From the IMG/VR virus record IMGVR_UViG_2541047442_000018: a DNA stretch of 6,941 nucleotides. The stretch is one strand, 5' to 3'. Every line of letters starts with the position of its first letter. Positions within the stretch are counted from its first letter, which is position 1. Position numbers and translations under genes: made by a program. The DNA comes from a virus (lineage: Duplodnaviria; Heunggongvirae; Uroviricota; Caudoviricetes). Below the pieces are notes generated by a model. That model had not been told where the DNA came from. It did not search any database and saw only the letters and a program-made list of their open reading frames with translations. Shown piece by piece: positions 3,590-4,324 of this stretch.

Positions 3590-4324
3590 ATGGAGACTGT
3601 TTTTGACGCACTGAAAGCGATGGGAAAAGCCACGTCGGTATAGCTGGCTGCGCGACTTGATATCAGTCGTGAAGAAGTACTGAACGAGCTGTGGGAACTG
3701 AAAAAGGCTGGCTTCGTTGATAAAAGCGTATACACCTGGCGTGTGGCTGATAACAACGTTCAGCAGGAACAGCCAGCGCCAGAAGAAACCACCACGGCAA
3801 CAGAAGCGAAAATCTCAGAGTGCGATTTAACCGCGACGATTGAACAACGCGGACCACAAACGGCGGATGAACTGGCTACGCTGTTCGGTACAACATCCCG
3901 CAAAGTTGCTTCAACGCTGGCAATGGCAATCAGCAAAGGTCGTCTGATTCGCGTAAACCAGAACGGTAAAATTCGTTACTGCATACCAGGTGATAATTTA
4001 CCAGCAGAGCCGAAAGTTGAATCGGTAGCGGAAACCGATGGTAAAGCCTTTCCTCAGCCAGCCGGTGTTGCGTTACCGGTACAGAAAGATGCAACACAGG
4101 AAGATATTAAAACAGAAACTGTGGCGGACATTGTGCAGTCGCTGCCATCGTTTACTGCAACGCGAGAAGATGATTTGATTTTGCCATCGCTGCATATGGC
4201 AAATCGCGAACTGCGTAGGGCGAAGAATCATGTCCAGAAGTGGGAGCGAGTCTGCGCCGCGCTGCGGGAGCTGAACAAGCACCGGGATATGGTTGCCGGG
4301 ATTTGTCGGAAGTCCGGGCAATGA
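3590..4324 (+). pseudogene. tandem winged-helix prophage protein (possibly DUF1627-like), interrupted by in-frame TAG at 3641..3643
   Basis: Seen in sequence: ATG 3590 directly follows the strong SD GGGAGG (3579..3584). The translation is [51 protein letters not shown]..., with the amber falling inside the first wHTH. A second wHTH-like segment ([34 protein letters not shown]) follows. The ORF-track entry 3743..4324 is the GTG-initiated tail of the same frame. Confidence 0.6.

Follow-up and report, generated by a model that had tools for sequence, protein, structure and literature searches.

The ydaW-like (DUF1627) gene of prophage Sp9 in Escherichia coli O157:H7 is very probably a pseudogene, fixed by drift and inactivated by a lineage-fixed nonsense mutation that changed GAG (Glu18) to TAG at position 3641 of the window. 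The window, i.e. the whole stretch of DNA analysed here, is the complete draft contig AVSF01000054.1 (6941 bp) of assembly GCA_000462725.2. Over bases 1–6409 it has exactly the sequence of prophage Sp9 in E. coli O157:H7 Sakai (NC_002695.2), and the same holds for EDL933, Xuzhou21 and many other O157:H7 genomes.

Sp9, a lambdoid prophage, is documented as defective (Asadulghani et al. 2009, PMC2669165). The peptidase domain is missing from its repressor, there are defects in recombination, portal and head functions, and it is not SOS-inducible. It can nevertheless excise spontaneously, and other prophages help to package it. The ydaW-like gene is located in the early rightward operon, directly after the O-like and P-like replication genes. 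The genes of the window follow each other in this order:

ydfC
844–1251 (−): DicA-like repressor gene
1328–1555: Cro/DicC-like gene
1539–2090: YdaT-like gene
O-like replication gene, then P-like replication gene
3590–4324 (+): ydaW-like gene
4321–4485 (+): 54-aa ORF (WP_001505071.1), ending in TAG; its ATG and the TGA of the ydaW-like gene overlap as ATGA (4321–4324)
4490–5023 (+): fimbrial-protein pseudogene (frameshifted, internal stop; PGAP)
5184–5942 (+): paa/adfO adhesin gene (AcfC family); this moron separates the replication module from hok
6131–6280 (+): sok antitoxin RNA (Rfam, 103.9 bits), which overlaps with the hokD-type toxin gene leader
6221/6278–6433 (+): hokD-type toxin gene

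The ATGA overlap suggests translational coupling of the 54-aa ORF to the ydaW-like gene; Pfam and PADLOC searches with this ORF gave no match. The Rfam search of the window returned sok only, with no RNA family at the ydaW-like gene. The fimbrial pseudogene is also present in O55:H7 DEC5A and in strain 2015C-3108 and is thus an older lesion of this prophage type. Individual copies carry lesions of their own. In O157:H7 PV15-279, IS1203 splits the O-like replication gene of Sp9 (locus L001, 4153–5365), and 2015C-3108 has a cro-like gene that is frameshifted by a 1-nt deletion, next to an intact ydaW-like gene (locus L004, 2719–2945).

At the right end (window 6388–6941), the last 530 bases derive from another hok locus: from position 6410, the window matches, with a single base differing, the hok-BOF segment beside rutG, which belongs to a different O157 element (L006). 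The junction at the boundary of Sp9 and this element falls inside hok. The chimeric 51-aa Hok is on record only on AVSF01000054.1 and the junction is found in no complete genome. It represents either a short-read assembly chimera or a hok–hok recombination.

Direct reading of the window sequence from ATG 3590 to 4324 (+) gives a single frame of 244 codons. TAG 3641–3643 (codon 18) is the sole internal stop and TGA 4322–4324 is the terminal stop. The elements of the gene are:

3578–3583 (+): Shine-Dalgarno (SD) sequence GGGAGG, 6 nt 5' of ATG 3590
3590–3640 (+): start codon and codons 1–17 (METVFDALKAMGKATSV), the sole part that would still be translated from the native start
3641–3643 (+): amber codon TAG, which arose from GAG (Glu18) through a G-to-T transversion at 3641 (alignments to PPompW_14040, 2015C-3108 and O55:H7 DEC5A)
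3644–4324 (+): remainder after the stop, annotated by PGAP as a CDS of 226 aa from CTG 3644 (WP_077744273.1; L001 6245–6925; anti-SD energy of the CTG −3.0 kcal/mol)
3743–4324 (+): alternative truncated CDS from GTG 3743, Sakai ECs_5720, 193 aa (anti-SD energy of the GTG −0.9 kcal/mol)

The predicted duplex of the SD sequence with the 3' end of 16S rRNA has an energy of −10.3 kcal/mol, compared with a median of −2.6 and a 5th percentile of −7.2 kcal/mol for the whole window. The initial annotation had described a strong SD sequence, ATG 3590 and a frame broken only by the TAG at codon 18, and both the sequence and the anti-SD energy confirm this description. Past the stop, the frame is open for 226 codons. 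A scan of the in-frame codons between TAG 3641 and GTG 3743 revealed no ATG, GTG or TTG, as had been claimed; the only candidates in this interval are CTG 3644, 3680, 3689 and 3698 and ATC 3662. None of the restart candidates is preceded by an SD sequence, and their anti-SD energies (−3.0 to +0.6 kcal/mol) are at background level, in contrast to the native start.

Intact 244-aa orthologues with GAG at codon 18 are present in the PPompW phages (LC567818 and ten other phage records; BCI48946.1), in strain 2015C-3108 (WP_000450683.1) and in O55:H7 DEC5A (WP_000450692.1), where the gene has the same neighbours on both flanks as in the window. These three share the backbone and gene order of the window with 8–12 differences in about 6.4 kb, but have GAG where the window and O157:H7 have TAG. 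PPompW_14040 differs from the window at one of the 1101 bases around the gene, and this difference is the G (GAG, Glu) instead of T (TAG) at 3641. Since the intact orthologues differ at a single base, the TAG is not just a chance property of some open frame.

For conservation, 61 of the best among 2727 database homologues were aligned. The start METVFDALK is found in 59 of the 61, and these full-length sequences all conserve the 17 codons upstream of the stop (59/59) and all have Glu18 (59/59). The two exceptions are a sequence labelled partial and P0099, a 231-aa call beginning with MAARLDIS; the contig of the latter (L003) has the same TAG, and the protein was called from the CTG directly after it. 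Furthermore, the phrog_630 profile covers residues 1–242 of the read-through protein with its positions 1–249 of 253. A natural start of the homologues 3' of the stop was also considered and is rejected, because 59 of 61 begin at the same ATG and the first 17 codons are conserved. The residue aligned to the stop had been expected to be Gln, Glu, Lys, Tyr or Trp; it is Glu (GAG), invariant in the homologues. Thus, a sense codon conserved in intact orthologues was lost by one base change, from GAG to TAG, as in a nonsense pseudogene. No credible initiation restores the complete product, and any product would lack at least residues 1–18. The proposal of a nonsense mutation in a decaying cryptic prophage agrees with this loss of the ancestral Glu18 and with the documented defects of Sp9 (PMC2669165).

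The read-through protein matches Pfam DUF1627 (PF07789) with 308.7 bits (E = 8.4e-93; gathering cut-off 28.1), and PGAP uses the name "DUF1627 domain-containing protein" for the copies in O157, O55:H7 and 2015C-3108. By this profile match, the gene is a member of the DUF1627/YdaW family. The full-length architecture of the family, with an N-terminal domain of about 50 residues, is found in the ancestral sequence and is cut off by the TAG in the window. The predicted domains are:

3590–3742 (+): first winged helix-turn-helix (wHTH), residues 1–51 of the ancestral protein (AF2, pLDDT about 76–84)
3818–3982 (+): probable second winged helix, residues 77–131 (AF2, pLDDT about 60; weak profile matches)
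3839–4297 (+): Pfam DUF1627 (PF07789) match, residues 84–236, profile positions 1–153 of 155
4163–4318 (+): long C-terminal helix, residues 192–243 (AF2 H192–243, pLDDT 76–90)

The AF2 model is poor overall (pLDDT 55, pTM 0.24), with a shallow alignment (homologues at least 84% identical) and disordered linkers, and only the three structured segments were used. In the first segment, the elements H4–11, E13–15, H16–23, H27–40 and E49–51 fit the topology H1-S1-H2-H3-S2-S3, and codon 18 (Glu18/TAG) is at the start of helix 2. Pfam matches of residues 1–47 are all below cut-off: HTH_20 scores 25.9 bits (cut-off 27), TrmB 21.2 (25.6), and MarR, Crp-type and similar HTH profiles are likewise slightly below their curated cut-offs. 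Foldseek with the AF2 model gave short local matches to the wHTH of Csa3, AsnC and MarR (probability 0.7–0.95, none with E<1e-3), and the PADLOC defence profiles gave only weak wHTH-level matches to Csa3/CARF regulators. The first domain is likely a winged helix-turn-helix, for which DNA binding is predicted. In the second unit (H92–99, H104–115, E120–124, E127–131) the profile matches are FeoC-like (E = 7.5e-4, 20.0 bits, cut-off 21) and HVO_A0114 (E = 4e-3). FeoC is also its sole match in the PDB profile search (E = 0.41). The tandem of two wHTH domains given in the initial annotation is thus likely for the first domain, with its fitting AF2 topology and its profile matches slightly below cut-off, and plausible for the second, with its pLDDT of about 60 and weak FeoC match. 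The C-terminal helix of the model is probably a coiled-coil or oligomerisation element. The PDB profile search and Foldseek on the AF2 model found no solved structure for the DUF1627 family.

The closest named relative is YdaW of the K-12 Rac prophage. It belongs to the same DUF1627 family and related phage records are annotated likewise. The position just 3' of the replication genes is the same in Rac/Qin-type lambdoid prophages, which also have a DicA-like repressor, a Cro/DicC-like gene and a YdaT-like gene. In contrast to the Rac gene, the Sp9 gene has a premature stop at codon 18, caused by a point mutation. Additionally, the K-12 and O55:H7 copies are of different length (PMC9308461). 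A literature search on DUF1627 and ydaW found no functional study beyond one screen hit and one bioinformatic survey: the survey places YdaW among the predicted transcription factors of the MarR type (PMC9308461), and an overexpression screen picked up the Rac ydaW, not the Sp9 copy, as a blocker of the retron-Sen2 toxin RcaT (bioRxiv 10.1101/2020.06.22.160242). The position after the P-like gene is also that of lambda Ren, and residues 78–128 weakly match "Ren-like exclusion protein" PHROGs (E = 1.5e-3 and 8e-3). However, these matches are far too weak for membership, and the ydaW-like protein is 2.5x longer with extra domains.

The distribution of the amber allele was determined with a 61-mer centred on the TAG. 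An exact copy was found in 293 of the 5426 complete E. coli genomes searched, Sakai, EDL933 and Xuzhou21 among them, and every serotyped example among the matches listed is O157:H7. The GAG version of the 61-mer is exact in 311 genomes, which include O55:H7, O145, O111, O45:H2 and porcine ETEC. The O157:H7 genomes listed in this second search (DEC4E, JEONG-1266, Gim1-1 and others) have one mismatch and no exact copy. The window is a short draft-assembly contig with a right end that looks chimeric, and the initial annotation had considered a base-call error. This explanation fails, because 293 complete genomes, each sequenced independently, have the identical allele; it is also found on a separate mosaic contig. 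The probability of a sequencing or assembly error in the draft contig is accordingly negligible.

Derived changes were counted by comparing the O157:H7 sequence with three outgroups (PPompW, 2015C-3108 and O55:H7 DEC5A). Only six derived events are found on the O157:H7 branch across 6.4 kb:

628/629: 1-nt deletion, upstream of the annotated ORF 281–580 (−)
1162: G (outgroups C), synonymous in the repressor gene
1321: T (outgroups G), in the SD sequence of the cro/dicC-like gene
2057–2058: GG (outgroups TT), altering the C-terminus of the YdaT-like protein and the SD sequence of the O-like gene
3641: T (outgroups G), the amber codon
6327: T (outgroups C), Thr to Ile in Hok

O157:H7 is considered to descend from serotype O55:H7, which DEC5A represents. 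Because GAG is present in all three outgroups and T is derived on the O157:H7 branch, these alignments date the amber mutation to this branch, after the split from O55:H7.

The mosaic contig (L003, from GCA_051684065.1) is equivalent to window positions 2443–4294. It is identical to the window from 2443 to 4138, with the same TAG, and diverges beyond 4138; the divergent part covers the region of the C-terminal helix and leads to a DUF977 gene in place of the 54-aa ORF. As the left module is identical, the amber of this contig reflects descent or recombination and not independent recurrence. The point of divergence indicates that the allele moved into the mosaic prophage by recombination 3' of the TAG.

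Ribosomes that initiate at the native SD sequence and ATG 3590 would halt at the TAG and release a 17-residue peptide. Since they would terminate after 17 residues, the full 244-aa protein with its two predicted winged helices and C-terminal helix would not be made. A restart would have to use CTG 3644 or GTG 3743, and because both are without an SD sequence, trace amounts of product at most would be expected. Translation of the 54-aa ORF, if coupled to the ydaW-like gene, would presumably fall as well. We infer from the sequence a loss of function of the ydaW-like gene in O157:H7. In the lysogen the early operon is kept repressed, and Sp9 already has defects and is not SOS-inducible, so selection on the gene would probably be weak. 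With weak selection in a clonal lineage, drift would be enough to explain the fixation, and fixation by drift in clonal O157:H7 is the most likely course. The open frame after the stop says little either way because the O157:H7 lineage is young.

The gene could instead work as an N-terminally truncated protein that is reinitiated at CTG 3644 or GTG 3743 after the TAG. Such a product would keep the second winged helix and the C-terminal helix and might act alone or as a dominant-negative on YdaW-like proteins of other prophages. It would lose all or part of the first winged helix, in line with the earlier claim that a restart product would be without the first DNA-binding domain. The PGAP and Sakai annotations call CDSs from exactly these two codons, the 226 codons past the stop are open and the C-terminal helix is confidently predicted. 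A precedent exists in lacI, where Files, Weber and Miller reportedly established in 1974 that early amber mutants yield restart products. There, the amber is within the N-terminal DNA-binding domain, as it is within the predicted one here, and the restart product, as would be the case here, keeps the oligomerisation region and loses DNA binding. However, restart was demonstrated for lacI, whereas for the Sp9 gene it is an annotation choice with candidate codons that have no SD sequence and duplex energies far from that of the native start. CTG is a very poor initiator in E. coli, and the start chosen by PGAP derives from protein homology. The PGAP and Sakai starts are homology-driven or longest-ORF choices and not evidence of initiation. 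Furthermore, six changes have accumulated across 6.4 kb since the split from O55:H7, so that the mutation is too recent for the open frame to be informative. A functional restart protein is therefore improbable. Slightly less probable still is the broader proposal that the amber is not a null allele, its truncated product re-tuning or poisoning the YdaW-like proteins of co-resident lambdoid prophages, or else that the loss was selected while O157:H7 emerged, e.g. in connection with retron defence. Taken separately, a selected loss would mean that the O157:H7 ancestor benefited, e.g. from the removal of a regulator, or of an inhibitor of host defence, that carried a cost or disturbed co-resident prophages. 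The TAG allele is present in all O157:H7 genomes among the matches listed, and Rac ydaW scored as blocking the retron-Sen2 toxin in the overexpression screen (bioRxiv 10.1101/2020.06.22.160242). But O157:H7 is clonal, so that fixation requires no selection, and one nonsense mutation among six changes in 6.4 kb is unremarkable. An independent recurrence of the loss was not found, the mosaic contig sharing the identical left module. Selected loss is thus very unlikely.

Suppression of the amber by the host, with the TAG read through and full-length protein made, had been offered as another alternative. Natural amber-suppressing coliforms have been reported; nothing favours this explanation directly. 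A supE44-type glnV is exact in 155 of 5426 complete genomes, but the 40 listed are all K-12 laboratory derivatives; this search covered one suppressor locus, the supE44 form of glnV, and served as a positive control. No tRNA gene was found in the window and the neighbouring ORF 4321–4485 itself ends in TAG. Moreover, suppression would insert Gln, Tyr, Ser or Leu at a position where Glu is invariant. The alternative is not supported by these observations and has only a minute probability, though not quite as small as that of a sequencing error. Programmed read-through or recoding was also considered and is rejected: the stop is absent from 59/59 full-length homologues and from the closest outgroups, and the TAG is confined to one clonal lineage and one mosaic derivative.

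A second nonsense codon is located near the left end of the window. ATG 302 (+) opens a frame beginning with MNTIKFSCPECGG, which is followed by TAA at 341–343 (codon 14) and continues with VFDTSF...CKNCGH. This zinc-ribbon-like ORF (CPECGG...CKNCGH; 302–502, +) has 66 codons and is interrupted by the TAA. Phage Evi (LR597642) has GAA (Glu) at the corresponding codon and an uninterrupted zinc-ribbon ORF of 66 aa. The TAA is common to O55:H7, 2015C-3108 and PPompW and is therefore older than the amber. The ORF is wholly antisense to the annotated 99-aa ORF 281–580 (−), in which the same base change is a Phe/Leu exchange, and its Pfam zinc-ribbon matches are all below cut-off. It may be a shadow ORF, the coding strand being ambiguous. 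The initial annotation had counted two early genes with single nonsense codons; the amber stands and the TAA is real on the + strand, but the latter is an older change in an ORF of ambiguous coding status. Both 341 and 3641 are G-to-T transversions of Glu codons (GAA to TAA and GAG to TAG). This type of change is linked to oxidised guanine; two events are too few for a conclusion.

Under the preferred reading of a drift-fixed pseudogene, the amber is one further small lesion among the known defects of Sp9 and an instance of ordinary decay, with little weight beyond annotation. WP_077744273.1 (from CTG) and ECs_5720 (from GTG) would be better termed an E18* pseudogene than a shorter protein. 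The G-to-T change at 3641 is a marker that parts O157:H7 from O55:H7 and from other STEC with the ompW-type prophage. Additionally, the amber allele provides a natural knock-out that may be used in tests of YdaW-family function, e.g. the blocking of retron toxins.
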